DNA of 64,000 nt, taken from positions 966-64,965 of the forward strand of contig CALHAI010000018.1 in NCBI GenBank assembly GCA_937934295.1, written 5' to 3'. The DNA comes from an uncultured Blastocatellia bacterium (GTDB taxonomy: Bacteria > Acidobacteriota > Blastocatellia > HR10). The notes beneath the pieces were generated by a model. The model was given only the letters and a program-made list of their open reading frames with translations. It did not search any database and was not told the DNA's origin. Numbering within the stretch: position 1 is the stretch's first letter; the number at the start of each line of letters is the position of its first letter. This document shows, piece by piece, positions 19,866-41,099 of the stretch. The translations under genes and the position numbers were made by a program.

Positions 19866-21058
19866 AGATGTAAGGTTTGAGACGCGTTCGCCGGATGAAC
19901 GTCACCGACCGCCTCCAGGCGTTCGCTCAAGATCAACGCGCGACGGTTCCCTTTCCATCGGACGAGGGAGAGCGCCGTCGCCGCATCCTCGAATCGGAAG
20001 GCATCGTGCTCGAACGGGTTGATGCGGATCACCGGGCGCGTCGGGAGAGCGGCCAAGAAGGAATACTCGCGGATGAAGAGGGGAAGGGCATCGGTGGGCG
20101 AGAACGCGAAGGCATGCACGTAGGGGAGGGGGAGAAGCAGGGGACGATTGGGCGGGATGATGTCTTCAAGGTTCACGCCCGTCTCTTCTCGAACCTCTCG
20201 AAGGGCCGCGTCAGCGGGTGATTCGCCGGGTTCGATCAATCCCGTGACGGGTTGCCAGAATCCGCCCTCGCGCTCGGTGCGTTTCAAGAGGAGATACTTC
20301 CCCTCCGGCGTGCGGAGGAGCACTTGAACGGATTCGGCCTCAATGGGACGCTCGACCAGATGGCGATCGAAGACATCTTGAAACTGAACGAGCAGGCGCT
20401 CCTGCACCAGTCCCATCGGGACGGGGGCGCCAAGGAGCCTCGCCATCGAGGTCATCCGCACGTCCGGCAGCCCACAAGGGATGATGAGATCGAAGAAGCG
20501 AAGGTCCGTGTTGACATTGAGGGCCACCCCGTGCGTCGTGACCCAATGGGAGAGATGAACGCCTATGGAGGCGATCTTCTCGCCTCCCGCCCAAACACCC
20601 GTCTGTCCGGGGATTCGTTCGGCCGAGATCCCAAAGTCCTCGAGCGTGCGAATGATGACCTCCTCCAAATCGCGCAAGTATCGGTGGACGTCGCGACGGC
20701 GCCCAAGAAGTTTCAGGATCGGATAGACGACGAGTTGTCCCGGCCCGTGATAAGTGACCGCTCCCCCGCGATCCGTCTCATAGTGCTCCACGTCATAGCC
20801 AGCGAGCACCTGGGGACTGACGCGGAAGTGATCGTTCACGTTCGCACTCAGATGACGCGTCCTTCGCCCAATGGTCACCACATGTGGATGTTCGAGCAGG
20901 AGCAGCTGATCGGGAATGAGATCGGCCTTCCGGGCCGCCGCCAGGAGAGATTGGGCTTGGAGGCCATCTTCGTACTCGACCAGTCCCAGTCGTCGGACAT
21001 GGCACGCGAGCGCGTCGGCGGGGTTCATCCGGTCATCCGGTCGGTCGCGGGCCGTCAT
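19862..21058 (-). CDS. lipB: Octanoyltransferase LipB fused to a C-terminal NUDIX hydrolase domain
   Basis: Residues about 10-235 are LipB (RGGAVTYHGPGQLVVYPIL, catalytic GEKIASIGVH, CGLPDV). Residues about 245-385 carry a perfect Nudix box, G-x5-E-x7-REVREETGV (GLIEPGESPADAALREVREETGV). It is a single ORF of 398 aa. Confidence 0.75.
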   Translation of the reverse strand: MTARDRPDDRMNPADALACHVRRLGLVEYEDGLQAQSLLAAARKADLIPDQLLLLEHPHVVTIGRRTRHLSANVNDHFRVSPQVLAGYDVEHYETDRGGAVTYHGPGQLVVYPILKLLGRRRDVHRYLRDLEEVIIRTLEDFGISAERIPGQTGVWAGGEKIASIGVHLSHWVTTHGVALNVNTDLRFFDLIIPCGLPDVRMTSMARLLGAPVPMGLVQERLLVQFQDVFDRHLVERPIEAESVQVLLRTPEGKYLLLKRTEREGGFWQPVTGLIEPGESPADAALREVREETGVNLEDIIPPNRPLLLPLPYVHAFAFSPTDALPLFIREYSFLAALPTRPVIRINPFEHDAFRFEDAATALSLVRWKGNRRALILSERLEAVGDVHPANASQTLHL

Positions 21059-21063
21059 GGACC

Positions 21064-22431
21064 TCAGACTCCTGTCAGCTCGAACGATTCCAGCGTCCGT
21101 TTGATGTGCGCCATGAACTGGTCGGCGACGGCACCATCAATGAGCCGATGATCGAAGGAGAGGGAGAAATACGCCATCGCCCGAATCGCGATCGCATCGT
21201 CCTCGACGACGACCGGGCGCTTGGTGATACGCCCGACGCCCAAGATCGCGACTTGGGGTTGATGAATCACCGGCGTCCCGAAGAGCGAGCCGAAGACGCC
21301 CGGATTGGTGATCGTGAACGTCCCACCTTGGACCTCTTCTGGTTTGAGCTGTTTGTTCCGAGCGCGCGTGGCCAGATCGTGAATGGCTTTGGCCAATCCG
21401 ACGAGGCTGAGCGCGTCCGCGTTCTTGATGACCGGGACGATGAGGCCCCACTCCAAGGCGACGGCGATGCCGATGTTGATGTCCTTCTTGTAGATGATCT
21501 TGTCTTCGGCGACCGACGCGTTGAGGAGGGGGAAGGCTTTCAAGGCGCTCACGCAGGCCTGGATGATGAAGGGCAGGTAGGTGAGCTTGACGCCGTGTCG
21601 CTGCTCGAAGTCCGGTTGTAGCTGTTCCCGCAGTCGGCTGACGCGCGTCATGTCGATCTCGAAGAACGTCGTCACATGGGGAGCGACGCGCTTGCTGTAG
21701 ACCATGTGCTCGGCGATCTTCTTCCGCATGCCGCTCATCGGGACGATCTCGACGCGCTCTCCGGGGAGATAGGGGGGATGGCGCGGCGCCTCCAGCTCTT
21801 GGGCTTCGGGTGGGGGGGGTTCAACGGGCTGCGGACGCGCTTCAGAGGGACGAGCGGCGCGTTCCTCCAGGTACCGGAGGACGTCGCGCTTGGTGACCCG
21901 TCCGCTGCGCCCCGTCCCCTCAATCTGCGTGAGATCAATGCCATACTCTTGCGCCAACTTCTCCACGACCGGCGATGACCGTACGGCCTTTCGCTCGGCC
22001 GGGATGGTGATGCGGATCTCACGCTTCTGCTTCTCCCAGGGATGAGGGGGGATGATGAGCTCGCGCATGGGCGACGCTTCCGTGGGCGGGGCGACGCGGG
22101 TCGGTTCGGGCGTCGGCTCTCTCGGCGGCATGGCTTCCGTCGCCGGCGCCGCGCGCTCGCTCACCTCGCGCGGTGGCGCCTCAACGGCCTCCTTGTCCGT
22201 CTCGATATAGGCGACGACGGTTTGAATGGGGACCGTCTCCCCCTCGTGGACAAGAACCTCGGCCAGGACACCTTCGGCTGGCGAGGGGATCTCCGCATCC
22301 ACCTTATCCGTGGAGATCTCAAAGAGCGGTTCATCGCGGCGAACATGGTCACCCGGCTTCTTCAGCCACTTGGTGACGGTCCCTTCGGCGATGCTCTCAC
22401 CCATTTGGGGCATGATGACCTCGACCTTCAT
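21064..22431 (-). CDS. Dihydrolipoamide acyltransferase (E2) of a 2-oxoacid dehydrogenase complex
   Basis: Has an N-terminal lipoyl domain (EISTDKVDAEIPSPAEGVL), a peripheral-subunit-binding domain (SPVVEKLAQEYGIDLTQIEGTGRSGRVTKRDV) and a catalytic domain (SFDHRLIDGA). Confidence 0.85.
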   Translation of the reverse strand: MKVEVIMPQMGESIAEGTVTKWLKKPGDHVRRDEPLFEISTDKVDAEIPSPAEGVLAEVLVHEGETVPIQTVVAYIETDKEAVEAPPREVSERAAPATEAMPPREPTPEPTRVAPPTEASPMRELIIPPHPWEKQKREIRITIPAERKAVRSSPVVEKLAQEYGIDLTQIEGTGRSGRVTKRDVLRYLEERAARPSEARPQPVEPPPPEAQELEAPRHPPYLPGERVEIVPMSGMRKKIAEHMVYSKRVAPHVTTFFEIDMTRVSRLREQLQPDFEQRHGVKLTYLPFIIQACVSALKAFPLLNASVAEDKIIYKKDINIGIAVALEWGLIVPVIKNADALSLVGLAKAIHDLATRARNKQLKPEEVQGGTFTITNPGVFGSLFGTPVIHQPQVAILGVGRITKRPVVVEDDAIAIRAMAYFSLSFDHRLIDGAVADQFMAHIKRTLESFELTGV

Positions 22432-22482
22432 GCAACACCTCCTTGGGAGGGCGCGAGTGCGCTCCTCGGCCCTTCTCCCTCT

Positions 22483-23457
22483 TCAATAGTTGGCGACCCA
22501 TCGGACGGCCTGGACGATCTCCTCCACCTGGGGGAGGAAGAACTCCTCCAGCGGAGGGCTGAACGGGATCGGCGTGTCCGGAGCCGTGACGCGAACGACG
22601 GGCGCCTCGAGATATTCAAAGATGCGCTCGTTGAGGCGCATAGCGATCTCTCCGGCGATCCCCCCCGTGCGCGTGTCCTCGTGAACGATGACGGCGCGTC
22701 CCGTTTTCGCCACTGAGCTGAGGATGGTCTCGTCATCTAAGGGGAGGAGCGTGCGCAGATCAACGACCTCGACCTCGATGTCCTCCTGCGCGACGATCTC
22801 GGCCGCTTCGAGCGACTTATGCACCATCCATCCGTAGGTCAAGATGGTGACATCCCGACCCGGACGCTTAATGTCCGCTTTCCCAATGGGGACGATGTAG
22901 TCGTCCTCGGGCACTTCCCCTCGAATGCGGCGATAGAGATATTTGTGCTCGAAGTAGAGCACGGGATCCTCGTCCCGAATGGCCGCCTTGATGAGCCCCT
23001 TGGCGTCGTACGGCGTGGCGGGCTCCACGATCTTCAACCCCGGCGTGTGGAAGAAGTACGCCTCGACGTTCTGCGAGTGAAAGGGCCCCCCATGCACGCC
23101 GCCACCGCAGGGGCCGCGCACGACGATGGGAACGCCCGCGCCCCAGCGATATCGGCACTTCGCGGCGAAGTTCGTCAGTTGATCGAAGGCGATCGAGATG
23201 AAGTCGATGAATTGCATCTCAGCGACCGGACGCAAGCCCACCAGCGCCGCTCCGATGGCCGCGCCCACGATGGCCGCCTCCGAGATCGGCGTGTCAATGA
23301 CGCGCTCTTCACCGAAACGTTCGAGGAACCCTTCGGTGACCTTGAACGCGCCTCCGTAGACGCCGATGTCTTCGCCCAGCAAGAAGACGCGTTCATCGCG
23401 CTCCATCTCCTCCCAGAGCCCTTGGCGAATAGCTTCCAGATAAGTCAACACGGGCAT
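22483..23457 (-). CDS. 2-oxoacid dehydrogenase E1 component, beta subunit (transketolase-like)
   Basis: 324 aa. Typical E1beta N-terminus (LTYLEAIRQGL...VFLLGEDIGVYGGAFKVTEGF...VIDTPISE). Confidence 0.9.
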   Translation of the reverse strand: MPVLTYLEAIRQGLWEEMERDERVFLLGEDIGVYGGAFKVTEGFLERFGEERVIDTPISEAAIVGAAIGAALVGLRPVAEMQFIDFISIAFDQLTNFAAKCRYRWGAGVPIVVRGPCGGGVHGGPFHSQNVEAYFFHTPGLKIVEPATPYDAKGLIKAAIRDEDPVLYFEHKYLYRRIRGEVPEDDYIVPIGKADIKRPGRDVTILTYGWMVHKSLEAAEIVAQEDIEVEVVDLRTLLPLDDETILSSVAKTGRAVIVHEDTRTGGIAGEIAMRLNERIFEYLEAPVVRVTAPDTPIPFSPPLEEFFLPQVEEIVQAVRWVANY

Positions 23458-23473
23458 AGGCGACGGTGCCTCC

Positions 23474-24499
23474 TCAGGATCGACTTTTCACCGCATGCTC
23501 GCTCGGTAGGGGAGCCTCTGAAACGGACGGCGTCTCGGCATAGACCCCCTCCAAGGCGATTCGTGGATCGGGCATCGGCGACTGCTCCGCATATTGCAGA
23601 TCGGCTTCGATCTCCTGCTCGATGCGATGGGTGATGGCTTCGAAATCCGTCTCATCGGCCATGCCGTGCTCTTTCAGATAGATCTCCAGGCGAAGGATCG
23701 GATCGCGCTTTTGCCAATATTCGAGCACCTCGCGAGGGACGTACCACGCGTCGTCGTGTTCGGCGTGACCACGCATGCGGAAGGTCTTGACCTCCAGCAG
23801 CGTCGGCCCCAATCCCTCGCGCGCGCGCTCGATGGCGCGACGCGTGGCGTGATAGACTGCGATGACGTCGTTGCCATCCACCGTCTCGCCGAAGATCCCG
23901 TAGCCGATGGCGCGATCGGCGATGTTCTCGATGGCCATCTGCCGGTGCTTGGGCGTCGAGTAGGCGTAGCCGTTGTCCTCAGCGATGACGATCAAGGGGA
24001 GCTTCAAGACGGCGGCGAAGTTCAGGCCTTCGTGGAAGACCCCCGTGCTGGTCCCCCCATCGCCGATGTAGGTGAGAGCGACCGAGCGCTTTCGCTGCAT
24101 CTTCGAGGCCAAGGCGATTCCGGCCATCACCGGGATGAGATCGCCGAGATGGCTGATCGGAGGGATGATGCCGCGCTCCACGCTCCCGAAGTGGACGATG
24201 CTATCCTTGCCGCGTGTCGGACTCGTCCCTTTCCCCATGTACTGGGTGAAAATCTCCCAGGGGCGGATGCCGCGTACAAAGAGCGCGCCGAGGTTTCGGA
24301 TCATCACCGCCAGGAAGTCTCCCTCTTCGAGAGCATAGGCACTGGCGACGGATTCGCCTTCTTGTCCAAGACTGCGATAGAGGCCCCCCACGATCTTCCC
24401 CTGCCGGTAGAGGCGTTGCAGCCGCTCCTCCACCATTCGGGTCAGTTTCATGTAGTAGTACATGTCCAGGAGTTGCTCACGGGTCAGCGGCTCTTCCAT
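23474..24499 (-). CDS. 2-oxoacid dehydrogenase E1 component, alpha subunit (TPP-dependent)
   Basis: 341 aa. TPP-binding motif GDGGTSTG...AEDNGYA. The substrate (pyruvate, branched-chain 2-oxoacid or acetoin) cannot be resolved from sequence. Confidence 0.88.
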   Translation of the reverse strand: MEEPLTREQLLDMYYYMKLTRMVEERLQRLYRQGKIVGGLYRSLGQEGESVASAYALEEGDFLAVMIRNLGALFVRGIRPWEIFTQYMGKGTSPTRGKDSIVHFGSVERGIIPPISHLGDLIPVMAGIALASKMQRKRSVALTYIGDGGTSTGVFHEGLNFAAVLKLPLIVIAEDNGYAYSTPKHRQMAIENIADRAIGYGIFGETVDGNDVIAVYHATRRAIERAREGLGPTLLEVKTFRMRGHAEHDDAWYVPREVLEYWQKRDPILRLEIYLKEHGMADETDFEAITHRIEQEIEADLQYAEQSPMPDPRIALEGVYAETPSVSEAPLPSEHAVKSRS

Positions 24500-24630
24500 A
24501 TGCGGCGCTCTCCATCTGAGACGGGGACGGGTTGAGGGAGCGGGCCGAAAGACCGCGCTCCCTGCGCCCTTTTCCTCTTGCTCCGCTCACAAAGGCGTGA
24601 CCTCATGCCGCCCTCGCGAAGTCGCCTATT

Positions 24631-24660
24631 ACTATAGCGAAGGCGGCGCAGCAGCGACAA
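24631..24660 (-). promoter_or_regulatory. Candidate promoter of the E1alpha-E1beta-E2-lipB-lptFG operon (-35 TTGTCG, 18-nt spacer, -10 TATAGT on the minus strand)
   Basis: Read on the minus strand: TTGTCG-N18-TATAGT, about 130 nt upstream of the E1alpha ATG. The leader contains a GGGAGCG...CGCTCCC hairpin. Confidence 0.3.
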
Positions 24661-24688
24661 GCTCCGGTCTCCAGAAACGGGCGCCCTC

Positions 24689-24716
24689 TTGAATTCCCGC
24701 ACGAGCCGGCTATACT
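24689..24716 (+). promoter_or_regulatory. Candidate greA promoter (-35 TTGAAT, 16-nt spacer, -10 TATACT)
   Basis: TTGAAT (24689-24694), a 16-nt spacer, then TATACT (24711-24716). It lies about 30 nt upstream of the greA RBS AGGAGG and GTG start. Confidence 0.4.
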
Positions 24717-24748
24717 TAAGGTGAAAAACCAACGCAGGAGGAACGGAC

Positions 24749-25237
24749 GTGCTCACGAAGCTCAAGGAACGGCTTGAGGCCGAATTGCGCACTTTGGAGA
24801 ATGAGTTGAAGTTCGAACTGCCCAAGGAGTTGCAGAAGGCTTTGGCGCATGGCGACCTGCGGGAGAACGCGGAATATCAAGCGGCCCTTCAGCGTCAGGA
24901 ATTCGTGCGCGCGCGCATCGCGCAGATTCGGAAGCAGCTCTCCGATCTCTCGATGCTCAATGTGAGTGCCCTTCCTCGGGATCGGGTGGCCTACGGTTCG
25001 ACGGTCACGCTCTTGGATTTGGATACGGGCGAGGAGGTGACCTATCGGCTGGCGCTCGGTGATGAGGTGGATCCCGAGCAGGGGGTCATCTCCGTCTCTT
25101 CCCCCATCGGCTCAAGCCTCTTGGGAAAACGGGAGGGCGATGAAGTGATCGTTCACACGCCAGCGCGCCAACGGCGGTTCGAGATCATCAAGCTCATCAC
25201 CTTGCCTCAGGAGCTGGAGGGGGGAGAGGCACCCTGA
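24749..25237 (+). CDS. greA: Transcription elongation factor GreA
   Basis: 162 aa. GTG start preceded by AGGAGG. Has the coiled-coil N-terminus (LRENAEYQAA) and the FKBP-like C-terminal domain. Confidence 0.85.
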   Translation: MLTKLKERLEAELRTLENELKFELPKELQKALAHGDLRENAEYQAALQRQEFVRARIAQIRKQLSDLSMLNVSALPRDRVAYGSTVTLLDLDTGEEVTYRLALGDEVDPEQGVISVSSPIGSSLLGKREGDEVIVHTPARQRRFEIIKLITLPQELEGGEAP

Positions 25238-25271
25238 GGCATGGCCGTGCGCGCGACTGCCGAAAGGCCCT

Positions 25272-27239
<1,968 letters not shown>

Positions 27240-27394
27240 CTAGGGCGTAGCGTCGTCCTGCGCCCTTGGCTCGAAGCTCTTGCTTCTCTTTGAGTTGCCT
27301 ATGGCCTGAACGCTCGTCGCTTTGGCCCGGAATTTGCTTTCAAGAATCATGTCAAGAGGTCTTTTTGCCCAAGATATGGTGTGGGAGGAGAGCT

Positions 27395-29020
27395 ATGGGA
27401 GGAAGAATCGTGCCAGAGAGAAGCGGGCTGACCTCTTGCGGGGCGCTTGTGGCTCCGCTGCCAAAGGGGTTGCCGAAGCTCGTCGAGTCCATCTGTCCGG
27501 AATGTTGTCGCGTCATCCCCGCGCGCATCTTCGAGCACGAGGGACGGGTGATGATGGAGAAGCGGTGTTCAGAGCATGGTGAATTTCGAGACCTCGTCTG
27601 GTCCGATGTTCGACTCTACTTGAAAGCCGAGCAATGGGCCTTTGAAGAGAGGCGCGGGGTCTCCAACCCGGCTGTGCCGGATGCCGTGCTCTGTCCGCAG
27701 GATTGTGGCCTCTGTCAGATGCATTTGAGCCACACGGGCTTGGCGAACATTGACCTGACGAATCGTTGCAATTTGACCTGTCCCGTCTGCTTCGCCAATG
27801 CGAACGTGGCGGGCTATGTCTACGAGCCTTCGCTCGAACAGGTCTATCGGATGCTGCGGCAATTGCGGGAGATGCGCCCGGTCGCGGCTCGCGTCATTCA
27901 ATTCTCGGGCGGGGAGCCAACGATCTATCCCCATTTCATCGAAGCGGTGCGGATGGCACGGGACCTGGGGTTCTCGCACATTCAGGTCGCCACAAACGGC
28001 CTCCGATTCGCCACTGAGCCCGGCTTCGCCGAGAGATGCGCCGAGGCCGGATTACATACGCTCTATCTTCAGTTCGATGGCTTGAGTGATGAGACCTATC
28101 GCAAGACGCGCGGGCAACCGCTCTGGGAGCTGAAGCAACGGGCTGTCGAAGCGGCCCGTCGGGCGGGACTGAAGATCGTCTTCGTCCCGACGGTCGCGCG
28201 TGGGGTGAACGATCACGAAGTCGGTCGCATCCTGCAGTTCGCCATCGAGAACATTGACGTCACGTCGGGCATCACGTATCAGCCGGTGACGTTCACCGGG
28301 CGCATCACCCAGAAGAAGCGGGAGCAAATGCGATATACACTCACCGACTTGGTGAAGGATCTGGCCGAACAGACCGGGATCGTGGACACGTATCACGATT
28401 GGTATCCCACGCCTTGTACCGTCTCATTCTCGGAGTTCTTGAGCGCCTTGCAGGGGGAAGAGACGATCGCCCTCACCTGCCATCCGCATTGTTCACTGGC
28501 GACTTATCTCTTTGTGGACGCGCGGACGAAGACGGCGATCCCCGTCACACGCTTTGTGGACGTGGAGGGGATGTTGCGAGCGTTTCGCGAGTGGGCGCCG
28601 CGGATCCGTCGGCTTCCTTCCAAGAAGCTCTCGGCACTGATGGCGTATATCGTCCTGCGGCGGTTCTTCCGACAGGAGGCGGCGCCACCGGGATTGACCT
28701 ACGTGAAGTTCCTCCGAACGCTCGAGGGGCTCGTGGACAAGCGCATCGGACGCGGGGAGAACGAGGAGCGGCTCACCTATCGAACGCTCATGGTCGCCGG
28801 GATGCATTTCATGGATGCCTACAACTACCAGCTCGATCGCGTCATGCGCTGCGTCATCCACTATTCGGCTCCCGATGGGCGAATCTATCCCTTCTGCACG
28901 TACAACTCGGGGATCACATTCCGCGAGAGGATCGAGCAGAGCTTCTCGATCCCCTTGGAGGCGTATCTCACGGCTTCCGGGAAGGAGCCCGTGGCGGCGA
29001 GGACCGTCTTGAAGGTGTGA
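27395..29020 (+). CDS. Radical SAM enzyme with N-terminal zinc ribbon, of the MJ0619 / tetraether-lipid-synthase (Tes) / Mss-like family
   Basis: Start ATG 27395 with a strong RBS GGGAGGAG. The N-terminus has CPECC...IPARIFEHEGRVMMEKRCSEHGEF (Zn ribbon) and a second C-x2-C...C pair (CPQDCGLC). The canonical CX3CX2C radical-SAM motif is NIDLTNRCNLTCPVCFANAN, followed by the glycine-rich SAM site FSGGEPT. An extension of about 250 aa follows, with no SPASM cysteines. The family assignment is from memory of family signatures, not from a database search. Confidence 0.6.
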   Translation: MGGRIVPERSGLTSCGALVAPLPKGLPKLVESICPECCRVIPARIFEHEGRVMMEKRCSEHGEFRDLVWSDVRLYLKAEQWAFEERRGVSNPAVPDAVLCPQDCGLCQMHLSHTGLANIDLTNRCNLTCPVCFANANVAGYVYEPSLEQVYRMLRQLREMRPVAARVIQFSGGEPTIYPHFIEAVRMARDLGFSHIQVATNGLRFATEPGFAERCAEAGLHTLYLQFDGLSDETYRKTRGQPLWELKQRAVEAARRAGLKIVFVPTVARGVNDHEVGRILQFAIENIDVTSGITYQPVTFTGRITQKKREQMRYTLTDLVKDLAEQTGIVDTYHDWYPTPCTVSFSEFLSALQGEETIALTCHPHCSLATYLFVDARTKTAIPVTRFVDVEGMLRAFREWAPRIRRLPSKKLSALMAYIVLRRFFRQEAAPPGLTYVKFLRTLEGLVDKRIGRGENEERLTYRTLMVAGMHFMDAYNYQLDRVMRCVIHYSAPDGRIYPFCTYNSGITFRERIEQSFSIPLEAYLTASGKEPVAARTVLKV

Positions 29021-29081
29021 CGCTTGCTTCCGACCTTCGCGCTGGGGCAGAATATAACTCTATCTTCTGGAGGAAGGGAGT

Positions 29082-29564
29082 ATGGAGCTGAAGGTCGTTC
29101 CCTTGGAGATCCCGTCCGGATGTAACATCATCGTCGGGCATGCGCATTTCATCAAGACGGTTGAAGACCTCTATGAAGTGATGGCGACCAGCTCGCCACA
29201 TGTCAAGTTCGGGCTGGCGTTCTGTGAGGCCTCTGGACCCTGTCTGATTCGGTTTGAAGGGAATGACGCGGAGCTGACGGAAGTGGCGGTCCGGAACGCG
29301 CGCCAGTTGAGTGCCGGGCACGCATTCGTGATCCTCTTGCGGGAGGGATATCCGATCAACGTTCTCAATGCGATCAAAGCGTGTCAGGAGGTGTGTACGA
29401 TCCACTGCGCGACGGCCAATCCTGTTCAGGTCATTCTCGTGGAGACCGAACAAGGACGAGGGATTCTCGGTGTCGTAGATGGATTCGCATCCAAGGGGGT
29501 TGAGGGGGAGGAAGAGAAGGCGAAGCGGAAGGAACTGCTGCGAGCGATCAGGTATAAGCTCTAG
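29082..29564 (+). CDS. Small conserved protein. Tentatively from the archaeal-type DUF355 family, but 'adenosine-specific kinase'-like is also possible. Function unknown.
   Basis: 160 aa. It lies 61 nt downstream of the radical SAM gene with an RBS GGAGG. Has the motif GHAHFIKTVEDLYEV and a Lys/Glu-rich C-terminal tail. The family call is a recollection and is not verified. Confidence 0.45.
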   Translation: MELKVVPLEIPSGCNIIVGHAHFIKTVEDLYEVMATSSPHVKFGLAFCEASGPCLIRFEGNDAELTEVAVRNARQLSAGHAFVILLREGYPINVLNAIKACQEVCTIHCATANPVQVILVETEQGRGILGVVDGFASKGVEGEEEKAKRKELLRAIRYKL

Positions 29565-29625
29565 CAAACTCTGTCCCCTCACTGGAGAAAGGGGGACTTA
29601 CACGCGTAAGTCATGGGAGATCTCG

Positions 29626-30100
29626 CTTAACAGAGCCGTTCGGATGGGAGAAATGCAGTTCCCATTAGGGAAAACGACGGCCCACGAATCTCGATTTTTC
29701 AAGCTTCTTGTGTCGCCTCAGATAGGCCTCGATCTACGGGGCCAGACGCTGTTTCCGCTCCAGCCATGTCCTGGGCGGGTCCTGCAAGACGGCATAGGTC
29801 AAGAAGACGATGGCCACCCAGTTGACAATCCCCAGGGGCGTTCGGGGATGGAAGGCCTCCAGCCCCAGCTCCTTCTTGGCCACCCGGTGGAAGACTTCGA
29901 CCGTCCACCTCAGATTGTAGCGGGCCTCGACCCGGGTCGAGGGCATCCAGGTCGTCGAAAACAAGTAGAAGCGTCGCCATTCGACTCGACCTCCGCAGAG
30001 GCGATACTCCCACCATGTGGGCACGACCCCTATCCGCCGGCGCCAGGCTCGGAGTTCGACCCACTGGGGCCGCTCCAGACAACCGATGGGACGACCGTCC
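29626..30100 (-). pseudogene. Truncated IS4-like DDE transposase remnant with one terminal repeat copy
   Basis: The minus-strand ORF ending at 29734 encodes only a transposase C-terminus (...YNLRWTVEVFHRVAKKELGLEAFHPRTPLGIVNWVAIVFLTYAVL), i.e. the IS4-family YREK/E region. No N-terminal DDE region is present. Repeat copy A (CTTAACAGAGCCGTTCGGATGGGAGAAATGCA, 29626-29663) sits just outside the remnant. Confidence 0.55.
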
Positions 30101-30269
30101 GCCAGTTCCGGTGCGAGACCCCCACGACATGCCAGCCCCCCTCCCGACAGGCAGCGACACCAGCCCCCCAGGTCAGACCTCCTCCAGAAGGAATACAGCT
30201 TCACCCTCCACCCCCTCAGCCATCCCGGACTCCCCAGCCTCTGCTCCCGAATAGGCTGCTCTGTGGTGA

Positions 30270-31010
30270 TTAAGTGAGGAGGAGGAAAAATGGATGCATT
30301 ATACTGTGGCGCAGGGATGATGGTTGTAGCCTCTGGCCACAGTGGTCGGTTGGAAAGCCCGCAGCAAGATACCTTGGGTGTTTTCCCTCTGGGGTGCCCT
30401 TGCATGGATAGTGGGCATAACACTAAAAGCAGTAGCTGCACTCCCAACTAGGCCTATAATCCACGGCGTTCGAGAGTTCTGCCCAGATAAATGACAGGAA
30501 TCTTTGAATGCGGAGTTACCCTTGGATTTGCGTCGATTCGGAAAATACGCGCGGCTCGCTGGAAAGAGGCGGTGGGGTTCGGTTTAGGCTTTGGCGCCAT
30601 AGAAGCTTTTTGGGTCGGGCTAATCGCTTTTGTCCTGGTCCTGTTGATCCTCTTAGTTCCAGACAAGCTTCCACCGGAGCTGTCTCAGTCGGTCATCCCA
30701 AGGGAGCAGTCATTCTTAGTAATCCCGGCGCCAATCATCGAGAGAATTACAACTATTTTCATACACGCATTCTCATGTTTGCTTATCGTCTATGCAGTGC
30801 AGTTCAGGGCGTAGAGGTGGTTCTGGGTTTCGTTTTTCTATAAGACTGCGGTAGACGCAGTAGCTGGTTTCTTTCAGATCACATACGGTGTTGAGAATCT
30901 CACGACACTTGAGATATGGGTCATGGAGCTCATTTTCCTTCCTTTTGGCATGATTGGTATTTGGGGGTTATGGGTGTTTCAACGCAAATGGCAAAACGCG
31001 GCTTGACCCC
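30270..31010. other. AT-rich islet (clearly lower GC than its surroundings) next to the IS remnant; probably foreign or degraded DNA
   Basis: The compositional shift is visible by eye. It holds only short ORFs, e.g. 30491..30814 +, a hydrophobic 107-aa fragment with a GFG..EAFW motif. Confidence 0.4.
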
Positions 31011-31164
31011 TCGTTCCGGCCGACCGTTCTCTCGGCGGCTCCGTCGGTGCAGTCGCAGCGGTTGAGATCGGTGATGCAAGCAGGGTGTGAAAATGGTAGA
31101 GCGTCTCGGGTTCTAAGTGCCCGGCCTCAGAGACATGGCGCAGGAACGGGCTATCGGGTTCCCA

Positions 31165-31605
31165 CTAAGAGGCTTGCACCACGGGCTCGACGACGAGTTT
31201 GTTGCCCTCGACGCCGGTGACCCGCACCATCGTGCCCGGGGCGATCTCGACGGTCGATGCCGCCACGGCCCGCCAGGTCTCTCCCTCGACTTTCACGAGA
31301 CCCCCCAGGGGACCCCGGACCGTTTCAAGGACCCAGCCCGTCTGACCGATGAGGCCCATGACTCCAAATTCCCGACTCTGGAGCTCCTGCCGGTGCAGGA
31401 GCCGACGGGAAACGGCCAGAGCGGCGACGGCGACGCCCAGGGCACTCCCGACTTGAAGCCACAGGGGACCCCCCAGGAAGGCGACGACCCCGCCCCCCAA
31501 GCACCCCACGCCCAGGCAGAGCAGGACGAAATTCGTCGGGAGGGCCAACTCAAGAAGGATACAAATCACGCCGACGACCATCCAGATGACAGTGAAGCTG
31601 ACCAT
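31165..31605 (-). CDS. NfeD-family membrane protein (short form: TM segments plus a C-terminal OB-fold). It is an orphan; no SPFH/stomatin partner lies adjacent.
   Basis: N-terminal TM helices, then the NfeD beta-barrel signature GLIGQTGWVLETVRGPLGGLVKVEGETWRAVAA...GTMVRVTGVEGNKLVVEP. Start ATG 31605, or 31647. Confidence 0.6.
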   Translation of the reverse strand: MVSFTVIWMVVGVICILLELALPTNFVLLCLGVGCLGGGVVAFLGGPLWLQVGSALGVAVAALAVSRRLLHRQELQSREFGVMGLIGQTGWVLETVRGPLGGLVKVEGETWRAVAASTVEIAPGTMVRVTGVEGNKLVVEPVVQAS

Positions 31606-31650
31606 GCCAGACACCCAACGCCGGATAGGATATGTATCGAAGATCAAGGG

Positions 31651-31689
31651 CGAACAGCGAATGGCGAATAGGGCCCTATTCCCTGTTCG
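31651..31689. promoter_or_regulatory. Palindromic element CGAACAG...AATAGGGCCCTATT...CTGTTCG immediately upstream of nfeD
   Basis: A perfect 14-bp palindrome AATAGGGCCCTATT (31667-31680) is nested in 7-bp arms. Additional GCGAA(T/C)GGCGAATAG inverted copies lie at 31654-31668 and 31701-31715. Confidence 0.35.
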
Positions 31690-31767
31690 CTGTGCGCCAC
31701 TCGCTATTCGCCGTTCGCTTTTCTCGAAGGGTCGGCAAAGCCGAGGGCATCCTGATTCTCAGGAGCT

Positions 31768-31998
31768 GAACGGCTCTGTTAGCATAGCCGTTCGGTTCGT
31801 GAGAATGCATCGGGACGGTCTTTCCCACCGCCCGAAAGGCACGGTTTTTCAAAGATACGGGATACGAGATGCGGGGTCCTCAGCCACCTGCCCATCTGCC
31901 GACTGCCGATCTGCGGGATGCTTGAAAAATCGTGCTCCCGGAAGGGTCTTTTTTCCGCTTCCCATCGCACTTTTCACTTCCCGAACAGCTCTGTTAAG
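31768..31998. mobile_element. MITE-like element bounded by inverted copies of the repeat CTTAACAGAGCYGTTCGG...GAGAAATGCA
   Basis: Copy B is at 31768-31815. It is a hairpin junction: GAACGGCTCTGTTAG, then CATAGCCGTTCGGTTCGTGAGAATGCA. Copy C is at 31955-31998 in reverse orientation (CCGAACAGCTCTGTTAAG). Both match copy A (29626-29663) at 17/18 in the core. Confidence 0.45.
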
Positions 31999-32116
31999 TC
32001 TTGAGCGCTGGGATAGTGCGGGGTCAGATTGGGAGTTCGAGAAAACCAACGTCCGATAATGTTTGATCCGAAATGTCGTCATTAATGTCGTCATTCCCAT
32101 GGGCGCTTGCCGAGGT

Positions 32117-32620
32117 CTACTCTTTGGGTTGGGGAGGGATAGGTTGAAAGCGGGGGAAGTGTTGGGCGGCCAGTTGGCTGATCATGGCAGCGCCGCGAGC
32201 GAGATAGGGTGAGGTGAAGCTCTCTCGCAAGAGATCACGACGCCATGGGAAGACGCTCAGAGCGAGATAGACGACCGAGCACAAAGCCCATCCGCGCAGG
32301 AAGCCGAAGAGACCGCCCATACCGTGATCGAGCCAGCTCAGGTGAGCCCGACGTAAGCCCGAATGAAGCGCGCGTGCGAGCAGGAGGCCGATGAAGAGCA
32401 CCAGCAGGTACGTACTGAGAAAAGCCAGCAAGTGCGCCATCTCCTCCGATTCGACGAGAGGACGGATGAACGGGGCAGCGCCGCGGTAGGAAGAGCTGGC
32501 GAGGAAAAACCCGGCGATGGCGGCGGCTGTCGTGATGACGCTTCGCGCGAATCCGCGTGAGAGCCCTGTGAGTGTCGAGAGGCCGATCACGAAGAGGACG
32601 AGGGCATCGAAGGTCGTCAT
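32117..32620 (-). CDS. cvpA: CvpA-family membrane protein (colicin V production protein homolog)
   Basis: Start ATG 32620 (MTTFDALVLFVIGLSTLTGLSRGFARS...). Four TM helices. It lies immediately downstream of purC, with 0 nt between them. Confidence 0.7.
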   Translation of the reverse strand: MTTFDALVLFVIGLSTLTGLSRGFARSVITTAAAIAGFFLASSSYRGAAPFIRPLVESEEMAHLLAFLSTYLLVLFIGLLLARALHSGLRRAHLSWLDHGMGGLFGFLRGWALCSVVYLALSVFPWRRDLLRESFTSPYLARGAAMISQLAAQHFPRFQPIPPQPKE

Positions 32621-33519
32621 GGTATCGTTTCCTTCCCCGTCAGAAGACGATAAGCCATGAGATACCGAGTGGCCGTTTGTTCGATAATGGATTTGGGGAG
32701 GCGAGGAGCGGATGAAGATCTGTCCCATCCGATAGAGTCCAGGTAGTCGCGGAGGAACTGCTTGTCAAAGGAGGGTGGCGGACGTCCGGGCGCATACTGA
32801 TCGGCAGCCCAGAAGCGCGAAGAATCTGGCGTCAGCGCCTCATCGATCCACAAAAGCGTCTGATCTCGCCATCCGAATTCGAACTTCGTATCGGCGAGGA
32901 TGAGGCCTCGAGCGAAGGCGTACTCGGCTGCCCGTGAATAGAGAGCGAGGCTCAGGTCCTTGAGCCGACGAGTTAACTCGGTCCCGAGGCGATTGGCCAT
33001 CTCGGCCTCGGAGATGTTGATGTCATGTCCTTCGGTGGCCTTGATCGCGGGGGTAAAGATCGGTTCCGGGAGTCTCGCCGCTTCGACCAGGCCCGGGGGC
33101 AAGCGGAGACCGCCGACGGTTCCGAACTGTTGGTACTCTCTCCAGGCCGATCCGGCCAGATAACCGCGCACGACGCATTCGATGGGGATTGGGCGCGCGC
33201 GATGCACGAGCATGCTGCGAGAGCGAAGCGCCGTGCGTTCGGTCTCCGTGAGTCCGTCGAGCGCGTGGACATCGGTCGTGATCAAGTGATGGGGGGCGAT
33301 GGGCTCCAGGAATCGGAACCAAAATGCCGAGAGCTGAGTGAGAACGGCTCCTTTACCAGGGATACCGTCCGGCAAGACGACATCGAAGGCTGAGATGCGA
33401 TCGGTCGTGACGATCAGCAGACGATCGTCACCGATGGTGTAGATATCGCGGACCTTTCCTCGCCGGAGGAGGGGATGAGCCGTGAGATGCGTTTCCAAGA
33501 CGACAGGTGGCGAGCTCAT
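32617..33519 (-). CDS. purC: Phosphoribosylaminoimidazole-succinocarboxamide synthase (SAICAR synthetase)
   Basis: 300 aa. LLRRGKVRDIYTIGDDRLLIVTTDRISAFDVVLPDGIPGKG is the hallmark PurC N-terminus. Its start overlaps the stop of the upstream tlpA-like gene (ATGA). Confidence 0.9.
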   Translation of the reverse strand: MSSPPVVLETHLTAHPLLRRGKVRDIYTIGDDRLLIVTTDRISAFDVVLPDGIPGKGAVLTQLSAFWFRFLEPIAPHHLITTDVHALDGLTETERTALRSRSMLVHRARPIPIECVVRGYLAGSAWREYQQFGTVGGLRLPPGLVEAARLPEPIFTPAIKATEGHDINISEAEMANRLGTELTRRLKDLSLALYSRAAEYAFARGLILADTKFEFGWRDQTLLWIDEALTPDSSRFWAADQYAPGRPPPSFDKQFLRDYLDSIGWDRSSSAPRLPKSIIEQTATRYLMAYRLLTGKETIP

Positions 33520-34004
33520 GGCTTGAGCAGCGCATCGAGCATTTTCGTCAACTCGTTCACGTAGCTCTCCGGATCCGCGAATCCCACATGCGGAGCCCCG
33601 ATGGGGTCGCCGTTGCGATCCAGGAGGAGAAGGGCTGGGACGCCCTCGGTCTTGAACCCTTGCAGGATGCGCGCTTCGGGATCGCGGAGTACGGGCAGAC
33701 GCACGCCCAGGCGGGAGACGAACTGTCGGAGTTGGTCATTAGAGATCTCGGGATCATCGATGCTGATCCAGAAGAAAGCGACCGGGCGTCCCGTGTATTG
33801 ATCGGCGACCTTTTGCAGGACGGGCAACTCCTCTCGGCAGGGCGGGCACCAGGTGGCGCCGAAGGAGAGGACGACGACTTGTCCACGGTAGTGCGTCAGG
33901 TCAACCATCCGACCATCGAGTGCAGGGAGCGAGAAGGATCGTTTCTGTGCGGGCGTCCCGTAAAGGGCGAATGCGACAAGGGCGAGCGCGAAGACTTTTT
34001 TCAT
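33516..34004 (-). CDS. TlpA/ResA-like periplasmic thiol:disulfide oxidoreductase (thioredoxin fold)
   Basis: Start ATG 34004 (MKKVFALALVAFAL..., a signal peptide). CxxC active site SFGATWCPPCREELP. Confidence 0.75.
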   Translation of the reverse strand: MKKVFALALVAFALYGTPAQKRSFSLPALDGRMVDLTHYRGQVVVLSFGATWCPPCREELPVLQKVADQYTGRPVAFFWISIDDPEISNDQLRQFVSRLGVRLPVLRDPEARILQGFKTEGVPALLLLDRNGDPIGAPHVGFADPESYVNELTKMLDALLKP

Positions 34005-34063
34005 AGGCACCCCCGAACGGTGTACTTTAGCACAGCAGGCATCGCCCGAAAAGGGAGTGGGCG

Positions 34064-36871
34064 TCATCGGAGCGTTCTCCCTTCGTTCCGGAGATAGGCG
34101 GCGAGGAACTGTCCCGTGTAGGACTCCGGGACGCGCATGATCGCTTCCGGAGGGCCTTGGGCGACGACATATCCGCCGCGCTCTCCGCCTTCGGGGCCGA
34201 GATCGATGATCCAGTCGGCGCATTTGATGACATCGGGATTGTGCTCGATGATGATGACTGATCCACCGGCGGCGATCAAGCGGCGGAAGGCGGCGATCAA
34301 CTTTTGAATGTCATCGAAGTGCAGGCCGGTCGTCGGTTCATCGAAGAGATAGAGCGTGCGGGCGCTGGTCTCTTTGGCCAGGTGGGCGGCGAGCTTGAGG
34401 CGTTGGGCTTCGCCTCCGGAGAGCGTCGTCGCCGATTGTCCCAGGCGGATGTATCCGAGGCCGATCTGATCGAGGACCTCCAACCGCCGCGTGATCTTCG
34501 ACACATCGGCGAAGAAGTGGAGGGCTTCGCGGACGGTCATATTGAGGACCTCGTGGATGGTCTTCCCTCGGTAGCGGATCTCCAGCAGTGCGGGTTGGAA
34601 GCGCATCCCCTGGCAGTGCTCACAGACGAGTTCGACATCGGCCAGAAATTGCATCTGGATGGTCACGACGCCGTTGCCCTCGCAGGCTTCGCAGCGGCCG
34701 CCGGGCACGTTGAAGGAGAAGTGTGCCGGGGTGAGGCCGCGCGCTTGTGCCTCGCGCGTGGAGGCGAAGAGTTCGCGGATGGCATCGAAGACCTTCAGGT
34801 ACGTTGCCGGGTTCGAACGAGGTGTGCGCCCGATGGGGGATTGATCCACGAGAATGATCTCGTCGAGCCATTCCCCACCTTCGATCTTGCGAACGGGGCC
34901 GACAGGTTGATTCCACTCTCCGCGTTGCTTCTTGAGATTGGCGTAGAGGACGTCGTAGACGAGGGTGGACTTGCCGGAGCCGGAGACGCCCGTGATGCAG
35001 ACCATCAGCTCCAGGGGGATGTCCACGTCAATGTTCTTGAGATTATGGGCGCGCGCACCGCGAATCGCCAGGCAGCGCCCGGTCGGGGAGAGGCGTTGCC
35101 TGGGGGTGGGGATGCTCAGCTCGCCGCGCAGGTATCTCCCGGTCAGCGAAGAGGGGGCGCGTTGCAACTCTTCGGGCGTCCCTTGGAAGACGACCTCGCC
35201 ACCGTGTTCGCCGGCGCCGGGCCCCAGATCGATGACGTGATCGGCGGCCAGGATCATCTCGCGATCGTGCTCGACCACAAGCACCGTATTCCCGATGTCG
35301 CGCAGATGCTTGAGCAAGCGGATGAGGCGCTGCGTATCGCGAGGATGCAGGCCGATGCTCGGCTCATCCAGGACGTAGAGGGTGCCGACCAGAGAAGCGC
35401 CGAGATTCGTCGCCAGTTGAATGCGCTGGGCCTCGCCGCCGGAGAGGGTGAAGGCATGCCGATCGAGCGTCACATAATCGAGACCGACGTCCACGAGGAA
35501 GGCGAGGCGCTGGCGGATCTCCTGAAGCAACCGGCCGGCGATCGCCTCTTCCTGAGGTGTGAGGGAGAGCGCGGCGAAGAAAGCGGCGCATTCGCCAATG
35601 CTCATGGCACAGATTTCGGGGAGCGTCTTCCCGCCGACGCGTACGGCCAAGGCTTCGGGTCTCAAGCGCGCGCCCTTGCAGGAGGGGCAGGTCGTATAGC
35701 CGCGATATTTGCTCAGGAAGACGCGCACGTGCAGCTTGTATTTCTTCGTCTCCAACCATTCGAAGAAGCCACGGATACCGGGGAACTCACCCTTCCCCTG
35801 GATGATCCAGCGTTGGTGCTCTCGGGAGAGTTGAGCGAAGGGGACGTCGGTGGGGATCCTCATGCGGCGGCAGAAGGTGAGCAACTCCTCCTGCGCCCAC
35901 TCGAACTGGGGCTTCGTCCAGGGTTCGATGGCCCCCTCTTGCAGCGAGCGCTCGCGATCCGGGATGACTAGGTCCAGATCGAGCCCGATAAGATTGCCGA
36001 AACCCTGACAGTTGGGGCAGGCACCATGGGCGCTGTTGAAGCTGAAGAGCTGCGGTTCGGGCTCAATGTAACGGGTTTGGCATTGCGGGCAGGTCAGCTG
36101 CGCCGTGAACGTGAGCTTCTGCGGAGGATCGCTGAGGAGCACGATTTCGGCGACGCCGTCCCCTTCGCGGTAGCAGAGCTCCAGCGAATCGATCAAGCGC
36201 GACCGGATATCGGGACGGAGGACGAGGCGATCTACGAGGACGCTCATCTCGTCGAGGGCGGGAGGGGTTTGGAGATCGCCGATCTCCACGACCTGGCCTC
36301 GCACGTAGAGGCGTGTGAATCCGCGCTGCTGCAGGGTGAGCAGCAGCGCCTTCGGCGAGAGCTCGCTCCGGCGGGAGCGTCCGTTCTCGGCTTTGCGCGC
36401 GAGCGGGAAGAGGACGTAGAAGCGGAGCCCTTCAGGTAATTGCAAGAGGCGATCGGCGATCGTCTCCGGGGTCTGGCGGATGACTTCGCTGTGGCAGGTC
36501 AGGCAGTAGACACGGCCGATTCGGGCAAAGAGCAGCCGCAGATAGTCATAGATTTCCGTCTGCGTGGCGACGGTGGAGCGCGGGTTGCGGCTGAGGGGTT
36601 TTTGCTGGATGGCGATCGTCGGGCAAAGGCCCGTGATCTCGTCCACATCCGGTTTCCTCATGCGCTCGAGGAACTGACGGGCATAGGCGGAGAGGGACTC
36701 CACATACCGGCGCTGGCCTTCGGCGTAGATCGTGTCGAAGGCGAGGCTCGATTTCCCTGAGCCGGAGACCCCGGTGATGACGGTCAGACTCCCGTGTGGG
36801 ATCTCGCAGGTGATGTTCTTGAGATTGTGTACGCGCGCGCCGCGCACGATGAATGCCGTCTGCTCACTCAT
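34064..36871 (-). CDS. uvrA: Excinuclease ABC subunit A
   Basis: Start ATG 36871 ([20 protein letters not shown]...). Two ABC ATPase modules ([10 protein letters not shown], twice) and zinc fingers. Full length, about 935 aa. Confidence 0.95.
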
Positions 36872-36996
36872 AACCGAAGAAGTATAGATCGGCCTATCGC
36901 GGATGGGCAACGTGAGGGCGGCGCATTGTCTTGGCGAAGGAGTGTGCTAAAATCTTGCTCGAAGATGGGCGGACGCTTCATCGCAAGGGAGGACCG

Positions 36997-38271
36997 ATGA
37001 AGGAATTCGAGAGAGTCGAAGAGGTGAAGGAGGAGAATCCGCTTGACTCGATGCTCTATCATTTCGATCAAGCGGCGCGGCTCCTTCATTTGGAATCGGA
37101 CCTATACACGTTCATGCGATATCCGAGCTTGGAGGTGACCATTTACATTCCCGTGATCATGGATGATGGGCATCTGGAGGTGTTCGTCGGGTATCGCGTG
37201 CAGCACAACTTCGCGCGGGGGCCGGCCAAGGGGGGGATTCGCTTCGCCCCTAATGTGACGTTGGACGAGATTCGGGCTCTGGCGGCGTGGATGACGTGGA
37301 AGTGTGCGGTCGCGAACATCCCGTTCGGAGGGGCGAAGGGCGGGGTCGTCTGCAATCCGGCTGAATTGTCGCGGGGAGAGCTGGAGCGGTTGACACGGCG
37401 TTACACGGCGCAACTTCTGGACATCTTGGGGCCGGAGCGGGACGTGCCGGCGCCGGACTTGAACACGGACGAGCAAGTCATGGCGTGGATCATGGACACC
37501 TATTCGATGCACGCGCGGCATGTGGTGACGGCCTCGGTGACGGGCAAGCCGATCGGGTTGGGGGGATCGGCGGGGCGGCGCGAAGCGACCGGGCGCGGGC
37601 TTTTGATCGTGGCCAACGAAGCCTTTCGACATCTGGGGCTTTCGCCCAAAGAGGCGCGGGTCGTCATTCAGGGGGCGGGCAATGTGGGCGGGGTTGCCGC
37701 CCGGCTCTTCCACGAGGCTGGGTATAAGGTGATCGCCATCTCGGACGTGCATGGCGGCATCTTCAACCCCCAGGGCTTGAACATCCCCGAGGTCTTGGAG
37801 TACCACCGCTTGGAGAAGAGCTTTCGTGGGTATCCGCACGCGGAGCCGATCACCAATGAGGAACTGCTAGAGCTGGAATGCGAGATCCTGATTCCGGCGG
37901 CTGTCGAGAGCCAGATCACTTCGCGCAATGCCGGACGCCTGCGGTGTCGGATCCTCTGTGAGGGCGCGAATGGGCCGACGACGGCGCAGGCCGATCGGAT
38001 CCTCCAGGAACGAGGGATCTTCGTGCTGCCGGACATCTTGGCCAATGCCGGCGGAGTGACGGTGAGTTACTTCGAGTGGGTACAGAATCGGATGGGCTAT
38101 TACTGGAGCGAACGGATTGTGAATCATCGGTTGAAGGAGGTCATGACCAAAAGCTTCCGCGACGTGCTCGCCTATGCGACGCGCTATGGCGTGAGTATGC
38201 GGACGGCGGCATACATGCTGGCGATCGATCGCGTGGCGTATGACGTACGCATGCGCGGCATCTACGCTTGA
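36997..38271 (+). CDS. gdhA: Glutamate dehydrogenase (Glu/Leu/Phe/Val dehydrogenase family)
   Basis: An RBS AGGGAGG precedes ATG 36997. Catalytic-lysine region GGAKGGV and NAD(P)-binding GAGNVGG. Confidence 0.9.
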
Positions 38272-38282
38272 GGCGTGGAGAT

Positions 38283-40214: not shown

Positions 40215-40300
40215 CTTTTTGGTGGGATTCAGACAAGATGCTCGCGGACATATGCGGATGTGGCGGCACAAGCGAGTGATCCTGTGGCGAAGGAGGGAGG

Positions 40301-41011: not shown

Positions 41012-41099
41012 AGTTCACGGAGAGGGTGAAGGAGAGGACCGCGAGTGAGCAGACTTCAAGCGTCCTCTCAAGGCCAAGGAGCGAGGTGGGCGCGTATCT

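Follow-up and report, generated by a model that had tools for sequence, protein, structure and literature searches.

The product of MJ0619 from Methanocaldococcus jannaschii was shown by Lloyd et al. to be GDGT-MAS, the synthase of glycerol dialkyl glycerol tetraether (GDGT) and macrocyclic archaeol, and the pterin-methylase activity assigned to it before was not reproducible (PMC9433317). The enzyme was crystallised with phosphatidic acid from Escherichia coli within the active site (PMC9433317). Mss, another synthase of membrane-spanning lipids, came to light because a BLAST search with the tetraether lipid synthase Tes has no hits in Thermotoga or Thermoanaerobacter; in Acidobacteria, homologues of mss were looked for and not found (PMC13159169), and AlphaFold models of Mss and Tes were reported to have a common catalytic architecture (PMC13274423). 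Tes homologues of Acidobacteriota were proposed as enzymes of branched GDGT (brGDGT) formation (Zeng et al. 2022; PMC8941075). Here, a stretch of 64,000 nucleotides from an uncultured Blastocatellia bacterium (contig CALHAI010000018.1; the whole stretch is called the window hereafter) was analyzed for a gene of the Tes family (27395-29020, + strand), a candidate membrane-spanning lipid synthase, and for the PF04008-family gene that follows it.

The frame encoding the Tes-family protein is open from 27266 to 29020 on the + strand, and the ATG at 27395, the start also used by public gene callers on three metagenome contigs with an identical protein, yields an enzyme of the radical S-adenosylmethionine (SAM) type, 541 aa long and with four metal-binding domains. 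An earlier reading of the DNA made from its letters alone (the sequence-only reading) had described this open reading frame (ORF) and a second one of 160 aa; both were real and correctly placed, and the motifs quoted for them (CPECC...CSEHGEF, CPQDCGLC, CNLTCPVC and GHAHFIKTVEDLYEV) were all found. The 541-aa protein is, to near certainty, a full-length member of the Tes/GDGT-MAS family, because it passed the cutoff of a curated hidden Markov model, aligned over its full length to a solved structure, matched the fold of that structure and kept the full set of metal ligands. The NCBIfam equivalog model NF045702 (rSAM_GDGT_ether, tetraether lipid synthase Tes) covered residues 31-520 and gave 582.2 bits, well over its cutoff of 450, the match extending from profile position 3 to 485 of 486. 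The best model match did not fall in an unrelated radical-SAM family; the TrsS-type model failed its cutoff and MoaA-type NCBIfam models scored far under theirs. Pfam detected Zn_ribbon_HMPTM (PF23545, 71 bits) and Radical_SAM (101 bits) and no SPASM domain, as had been noted before.

The sole strong relative in the PDB was GDGT-MAS of M. jannaschii (7TOL/7TOM; E 4.7e-137, residues 21-524). Pairwise alignment with 7TOL gave 45% identity over 488 columns, and neither the N-terminal nor the C-terminal domain failed to align. The AlphaFold2 model (pTM 0.79) matched 7TOM in Foldseek with TM scores of 0.79/0.85, the fold of the C-terminal domain included; the next fold, MoaA, reached 0.33, a value that reflects the radical-SAM core alone. 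From the family of three enzymes (Tes, Mss and MJ0619) put forward by the sequence-only reading, membership in Tes/GDGT-MAS (MJ0619) was retained, but not the grouping: MJ0619 is Tes itself (PMC9433317) rather than a third enzyme, and Mss is of a different sequence family according to the literature, in which Tes and Mss do not find one another by BLAST (PMC13159169). The homologue search returned 5766 matches at E <= 1e-10 among the candidates scored; bacterial Tes homologues number thousands, and the hypothesis on their function is already published.

Residues were mapped by alignment to the M. jannaschii structure, with site descriptions taken from PMC9433317 and PMC13459092, and their conservation was checked in 79 sequences, including 77 bacterial homologues. 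All 15 metal ligands, as well as the equivalents of Met439 and Tyr459, were identical to those of the M. jannaschii (Mj) enzyme, and all ligands, the Tyr459 equivalent and seven checked residues of the 5'-deoxyadenosine (5'-dAH)/methionine site were invariant in the 77 bacterial homologues. What had been taken for one Cys4 zinc ribbon would by homology correspond to two distinct Cys3His sites, the first for iron and the second for a [4Fe-4S] cluster. The iron site, rubredoxin-like and mononuclear (C34-x2-C37-x20-C58-x2-H61; 27494-27577, + strand), was invariant and displayed exactly the spacing of its Mj counterpart (C9-x2-C12-x20-C33-x2-H36). The predicted ligands of the N-terminal auxiliary [4Fe-4S] cluster, C100-x3-C104-x2-C107 with H110 (27692-27724, + strand), were also invariant and corresponded to Mj C73, C77, C80 and His83, the last of which is presumably the 'conserved histidine' left unnamed in PMC9433317. 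The radical-SAM CX3CX2C motif was formed by C125, C129 and C132 (Mj C98, C102 and C105; 27767-27790, + strand). In the surroundings of 5'-dAH and methionine, 10 of the 11 checked residues were identical to those of 7TOL (F133, G173, Y224, D228, R239, V264, T266, Q296, T301 and R303), and Mj Ser271 was replaced by a threonine (T299).

The large C-terminal extension, described earlier as devoid of a SPASM motif, was confirmed in that respect, but it is not cofactor-free. C366, C486, C501 and M470 (Mj Met439) matched the ligand set of the third cluster in an alignment that also paired Y490 with Mj Tyr459 (C-terminal auxiliary-cluster domain, 28490-28897, + strand). The three cysteines, as the sole conserved ones of that domain, are likely ligands of the third cluster, and the extension corresponds to the domain that holds this cluster and the lipid pocket. 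On the basis of these alignments, the window protein has all that the characterised enzyme uses for tail-to-tail coupling.

With family membership, fold, complete conservation of the cofactor and SAM sites and purifying selection (see below) established, a role in membrane-spanning lipid synthesis in an Acidobacteriota organism stands as the leading hypothesis, and we hold it reasonably probable that the gene at 27395-29020 encodes such a synthase. The exact protein and its 90% cluster came from metagenome-assembled genomes (MAGs) labelled "Blastocatellia bacterium" by NCBI, which bore out the earlier suggestion of a possibly Acidobacteriota-like host, and sister sequences were found in the hot-spring bins HR08, HR10 and JZ-3. 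By homology to the M. jannaschii enzyme, whose mechanism is described in PMC9433317 and PMC13459092, the [4Fe-4S] cluster bound by CX3CX2C would cleave SAM reductively, and the resulting 5'-deoxyadenosyl radical would take a hydrogen off the end carbon of an alkyl chain in a lipid. The lipid radical would then be stored, through a C-S bond, at the C-terminal [4Fe-4S] cluster, until a second SAM-derived radical, formed on a second chain, attacks it and creates a Csp3-Csp3 bond.

Production of archaeol or isoprenoid GDGTs has not been demonstrated for bacteria (PMC8941075), so that some other lipid must serve as substrate. In the proposal of Zeng et al., the Tes homologues of bacteria join iso-C15 chains into brGDGT-type lipids, as the termini of iso-acyl and phytanyl chains are identical (PMC8941075). 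Among the lipids of Blastocatellia, iso-C15:0 dominates and iso-diabolic acid occurs as well, and in Pyrinomonas membrane-spanning or ether lipids make up > 40% of all lipids (PMC12816986, PMC4644332). Because of this dominance of iso-C15:0, and because the isopropyl terminus equals the phytanyl terminus, iso-branched glycerolipids (acyl or alkyl) are the probable substrates of the window enzyme, and its product would probably be a membrane-spanning lipid of the iso-diabolic-acid type.

Several observations weigh against this assignment. According to a review of August 2026, bacterial Tes homologues are still bioinformatic detections, none of which has been assayed (PMC13459092). A Tes homologue was found in 3 of 14 acidobacteria that produce iso-diabolic acid, from which the authors infer an alternative pathway (PMC13159169); most cultured strains therefore seem able to make iso-diabolic acid without Tes. 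The paralogue MA_1114 of Methanosarcina acetivorans yields only traces of macrocyclic archaeol, and halobacteria with Tes homologues make no GDGTs (PMC8941075), so that family membership is no guarantee of activity. Genes for ether lipids, Ger/PlsA or other steps of lipid synthesis were unlinked to Tes here and in most of the 80 related loci, none of the Tes loci having a conserved lipid-gene neighbour, and no Ger/PlsA-like gene was found in the window.

Most of these observations, along with the lack of Tes at this locus in more distant Blastocatellia, would fit a Tes-family enzyme with another job, the main iso-diabolic acid synthase of Blastocatellia being then an unrelated enzyme. Such a protein could carry out other radical chemistry of the C-C or C-S kind on hydrophobic molecules, for example intramolecular macrocyclisation, cross-linking, or alteration of hopanoid or other isoprenoid chains, or it could serve as a conditional, oxygen-sensitive back-up. 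We regard this as a serious possibility, though a clearly less probable one than lipid-tail coupling: all positions that serve catalysis and cofactor binding in tail coupling show strict conservation, among them the equivalents of Met439 and Tyr459, the curated equivalog model was matched above its cutoff, and the iso-C15 terminus is chemically identical to that of phytanyl.

Some genes of possible metabolic relevance were observed around Tes genes. In two related, Eisenbacteria-labelled loci (L094:29-4732 and L006:~1900-6600), the Tes homologue, at 62% identity, has a cluster of two HGD-D genes and two BcrAD_BadFG genes at a distance of ~3 kb, which carry the Pfam domains of the PlsA/Ger ether-lipid enzymes. 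This cluster was restricted to the two loci, with a weak BcrAD match in a third (L032). It is flanked by genes for enoyl-CoA hydratase, alcohol dehydrogenase and short-chain dehydrogenase/reductase, and may just as well encode a pathway of 2-hydroxyacyl-CoA dehydratase. In the window, a 2-oxoacid dehydrogenase complex and a lipoate ligase are encoded 3-8 kb upstream of Tes (19862-24499). These genes, and the ilvBNC genes downstream of Tes in another locus (L093, see below), could supply branched-chain primers for iso-fatty acids, or their position could be a coincidence.

Tes is vertically inherited within the thermophilic Blastocatellia clade. Its GC content (0.603), GC3 (0.764) and codon-usage distance (0.091) all lay within the range of the neighbouring housekeeping genes. 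Against three orthologues, dN/dS was 0.09 for Tes and 0.04-0.07 for the PF04008 gene with dS up to ~1, which indicates long vertical maintenance under purifying selection. By blastn, the window was collinear with locus L004 (91% nucleotide identity) over 21071-29571 and 32141-41350, and with locus L086 (80% nucleotide identity) over the corresponding stretches. Between these stretches lies an inserted islet of 2.57 kb (29572-32140; GC 0.576), absent in both relatives, where the spacer between the PF04008 gene and cvpA measured 216 bp (L004) and 165 bp (L086). Since collinear relatives have the Tes-PF04008 arrangement without the islet, the latter is a strain-specific insertion and came later than that arrangement; it carries no information on how Tes arrived.

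The sequence-only reading had concluded from the mobile DNA next door that the genes were acquired horizontally. This could not be upheld: the islet is missing in collinear relatives that have Tes and PF04008, gene composition is native and dN/dS is below 0.1. Vertical conservation with native GC and codon usage, the pattern which that reading itself had set against a recent acquisition, was what the clade displayed. Recent horizontal transfer of Tes was thus rejected, on the grounds of native GC, GC3 and codon distance, by the collinear relatives and by dN/dS, while an ancient transfer into the ancestor of the clade may have taken place.

The mobile features reported downstream (a truncated transposase, a repeat family and AT-rich DNA) were all real. 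A remnant of a DDE_Tnp_1 transposase (29734-30447, - strand; PF01609, E 1.2e-07) covered only profile positions 127-198 of 200, and was followed by a YhfC-family fragment of 107 aa (30491-30814, + strand; profile positions 70-185 of 222; GC 0.50) and by a gene for an NfeD-domain protein (31165-31647, - strand; PF01957, E 9.7e-16). The 18-nt repeat CTTAACAGAGCCGTTCGG was found in four copies (29626-29643 and 31778-31795 on the + strand, 31766-31783 and 31981-31998 on the - strand), against 0.01 expected by chance, and occurred neither elsewhere in the window nor in the spacers of the relatives. The outer pair (29626-29643 and 31981-31998) is inverted and sits ~50-140 bp inside the islet ends. 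GC content downstream of the PF04008 gene dropped to 0.52-0.58, compared with ~0.62 elsewhere. NfeD genes are usually paired with a gene of the SPFH (stomatin/flotillin) family, and no SPFH match was obtained among the adjacent ORFs scanned. The islet has the appearance of a decayed mosaic insertion.

The gene downstream of Tes (29082-29564, + strand) encodes a protein of 160 aa of the PF04008 'adenosine-specific kinase' family, matched over its full length (255.4 bits against a gathering score of 25; profile positions 1-154 of 154). Six homologues have solved structures, including ST1511 (E 1e-59), TTHA1091, PAE2307 (E 7e-52) and PH1918, and relatives at ~70% identity were found in cyanobacteria, Deltaproteobacteria, Atribacteria, other Acidobacteriota and Bathyarchaeia. 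The label "archaeal-type conserved protein of unknown function" given to it at first does not hold, as PF04008 is widespread in bacteria and structurally characterised. Views on the role of the family are in dispute and range from adenosine kinase or ADPase to a lack of any activity in the Thermotoga maritima protein (PMC10248530).

Adjacency and function of the two genes were considered together. Tes and PF04008 share a strand and are separated by 61 nt; a good ribosome-binding site, GGAGGAAGGGAG, precedes the second ATG, and no terminator-like site or hairpin was found in the spacer. Co-transcription of the two genes is therefore possible. The adjacency is also kept in relatives at dS ~1, and PF04008 proteins bind adenosine and AMP (PMC10248530), and radical-SAM enzymes release 5'-deoxyadenosine. 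These points would fit a functional module of two genes, radical-SAM chemistry on one side and handling of adenosine-type by-products or nucleotides on the other. In the sequence-only reading, such a pair would have been acquired horizontally with the adjacent mobile DNA. In a more specific form, the hot-spring Blastocatellia clade would have a co-transcribed, lineage-specific pair in which PF04008 binds or processes an adenosine-type product of the radical-SAM reaction such as 5'-deoxyadenosine, along an archaeal-style route to membrane-spanning lipids of the iso-diabolic or brGDGT type; cultured subdivision-4 strains devoid of Tes would then make such lipids by another route. It is known that 5'-deoxyadenosine inhibits radical-SAM enzymes. 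We consider the module improbable and give the specific form equally little credence, given the comparative data.

By tblastn, the PF04008 protein was sought in 83 Tes loci and, in turn, the Tes protein in 80 PF04008 loci. Partners were counted in 80 Tes loci from GTDB species genomes, with flanks up to 10 kb, and the reciprocal test used PF04008 loci from metagenomes, of which 44 out of 80 were at least 5 kb long. Among the Tes loci, adjacency to PF04008 was observed only in L004, which belongs to the window's own lineage; a second Tes locus of that lineage (L005) ends inside the Tes gene and was hence uninformative. Outside the lineage, PF04008 was found within 10 kb of Tes in 0 of 78 loci. 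Conversely, Tes was near PF04008 in a single PF04008 locus (L095; 89% identical and of the same lineage) and absent in 79 of the 80. In more distant Blastocatellia (L087-L092; PF04008 79% identity), the PF04008 gene lies beside cvpA-purC-thioredoxin-uvrA, with UbiD and RuvB genes upstream and no Tes. The closest outgroup Tes (P0005, 73% identical; L093:80-6507) is followed by ilvB-ilvN-ilvC without PF04008; in that locus, Tes was also seen to be preceded by a gene for a 328-aa SPASM-domain protein. All-against-all clustering of the flanking ORFs of 81 loci displayed no conserved neighbour of bacterial Tes and no operon, the commonest neighbours being a multi-pass membrane protein (12 loci) and a small Cys-rich protein (10 loci).

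Because the comparative loci keep PF04008 with cvpA-purC-thioredoxin-uvrA in the absence of Tes, the gene is part of the syntenic block on the right, whereas Tes is part of that on the left (ThiC-GreA-dehydrogenase). The Tes-PF04008 adjacency is a synteny breakpoint of one clade. The islet being missing where the pair is already present, and gene composition being native, the acquisition part of the module is contradicted too, and the two-gene module as a whole is largely refuted by these data; PF04008 is not the conserved small partner of Tes that it had been taken for. It is an adenine-nucleotide-binding housekeeping gene, unrelated to Tes and placed alongside by rearrangement.

Two further functions of the 541-aa protein can be set against lipid-tail coupling. 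The original annotation of MJ0619, a class D radical-SAM methylase acting as 7,8-dihydro-6-hydroxymethylpterin dimethyltransferase, survives in the JGI label of some cluster members and in the Pfam name HMPTM, which derives from it. A pterin C-methylase is very improbable, though, as the activity was not reproducible, and the M. jannaschii enzyme has a long hydrophobic pocket in which lipids are bound, its products in vitro being GDGT and macrocyclic archaeol (PMC9433317); besides, no methanopterin-pathway gene was seen among those ORFs of the window that were scanned, each 230 aa or longer. Membership in the TrsS type, the radical-SAM (seleno)protein of a Trs system with three components, can practically be dismissed, since the partial match to NF045646 (354.5 bits) was below the cutoff of 490 and confined to residues 30-349, the Tes model scored far higher over its full length, the ORF has no in-frame UGA, and no Trs partner genes were seen nearby.

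The window is ordinary core chromosome. From left to right, it encodes beta-oxidation genes, LpxK, KdtA, PPDK, RecO, PurL, LptFG, lipoate ligase, the 2-oxoacid dehydrogenase (E2/E1b/E1a), GreA and ThiC, then Tes and PF04008. The genes further right are CvpA, PurC, a thioredoxin-like protein, UvrA and GDH, followed by Tol-Pal genes, ParAB, a XerC/D-type recombinase, MetK, AhcY and FeoB. The "LPS/lipid neighbourhood" of the sequence-only reading was a loose description: LpxK, KdtA and LptFG are present, but 8-19 kb from Tes, with PPDK, RecO, PurL, lipoate ligase, 2-oxoacid dehydrogenase, GreA and ThiC between these genes and Tes. ThiC (25272-27161, - strand) is the left neighbour, divergent from Tes, and part of the left block E2-E1b-E1a / GreA / ThiC, which is kept together with Tes in close relatives. 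On the other side, the cvpA-purC-thioredoxin-like-uvrA block (32117-36910, - strand) is the ancestral anchor of the PF04008 gene; in L084-L092 it likewise comes after PF04008, also in the relatives without Tes there.

In the left part, three matches to LptF_LptG within a single ORF of 849 aa (17316-19865) point to a permease in which LptF and LptG are fused, and an ORF of 398 aa (19862-21058) combines a lipoate-protein ligase catalytic domain with a NUDIX domain and lies on the minus strand directly downstream of the 2-oxoacid dehydrogenase E2 gene (21064-22431). A thiamine pyrophosphate (TPP) riboswitch upstream of thiC is expected in many bacteria; at the Rfam gathering threshold, no such riboswitch or other RNA was found in the ThiC-Tes intergenic region upstream of thiC (27162-27394, ~230 nt), and two tRNAs were the only RNA families of the whole window. 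In the promoter and terminator scan of 27000-32400, nothing exceeded the shuffled expectation.

Branched GDGTs and lipids of iso-diabolic acid underpin widely used proxies of palaeotemperature and pH; the acidobacterial enzyme that joins their tails is still unproven, the candidates put forward in the literature being homologues of Tes. To these, thermophilic Blastocatellia contribute with this locus a clean candidate: an intact gene, subject to purifying selection and located in a region of housekeeping genes. The gain is incremental, one further candidate gene and no new system. For annotation purposes, PF04008 should not be propagated as a partner of Tes, and the labels "pterin dimethyltransferase", "GTP 3',8-cyclase" and "zinc ribbon" on relatives are misleading. 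Public labels were indeed inconsistent, namely "GTP 3',8-cyclase" (bacterium HR10), "7,8-dihydro-6-hydroxymethylpterin dimethyltransferase" (JGI) and "radical SAM protein"; P0264 and P0279 are examples of close relatives of the window protein that bear such labels.

Compared with the described systems, the PF04008 protein resembles PAE2307, TTHA1091, ST1511 and TmAsK, to which it matched over its full length (E about 1e-52 to 1e-60); the histidine motif HFIKTVEDL of the family is kept, and no distinctive feature was found. Mss of Thermotoga maritima and Thermoanaerobacter ethanolicus is a functional analogue of Tes from a different sequence family, set apart by the published reports. With GDGT-MAS of M. 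jannaschii (MJ0619; 7TOL, 7TOM; with Maeo_0574 and MA_1486), the window Tes shares the four-domain architecture and identical ligands at the Cys3His iron site, the Cys3His [4Fe-4S]N cluster, CX3CX2C and the Cys3Met [4Fe-4S]C cluster. The window protein differs from it by ~25 additional N-terminal residues and by Gly and Val in place of Mj Cys438 and Cys456, neither of which is conserved in bacterial homologues; its host is a bacterium, and its activity is predicted from homology.

The closest resemblance among bacteria was to the Acidobacteriota Tes homologues (Ca. Solibacter usitatus, Ca. Koribacter versatilis, Bryobacteraceae), which fall in the same bacterial clade at 55-62% identity. In the literature, nothing specific was found on Tes in Blastocatellia (SD4), Pyrinomonas or Chloracidobacterium. 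A quick neighbour-joining tree, indicative only as it was rooted on a single archaeal outgroup, placed the window's clade, with P0005 and P0006, deep inside the bacterial Tes group and far from the outgroup, the Blastocatellia branch being sister to an Eisenbacteria-labelled group. The window Tes thus has in common with the other Acidobacteriota homologues the same invariant residues and a gene that is solitary in most loci, and differs from them by its position on a separate deep branch of hot-spring Blastocatellia sequences.

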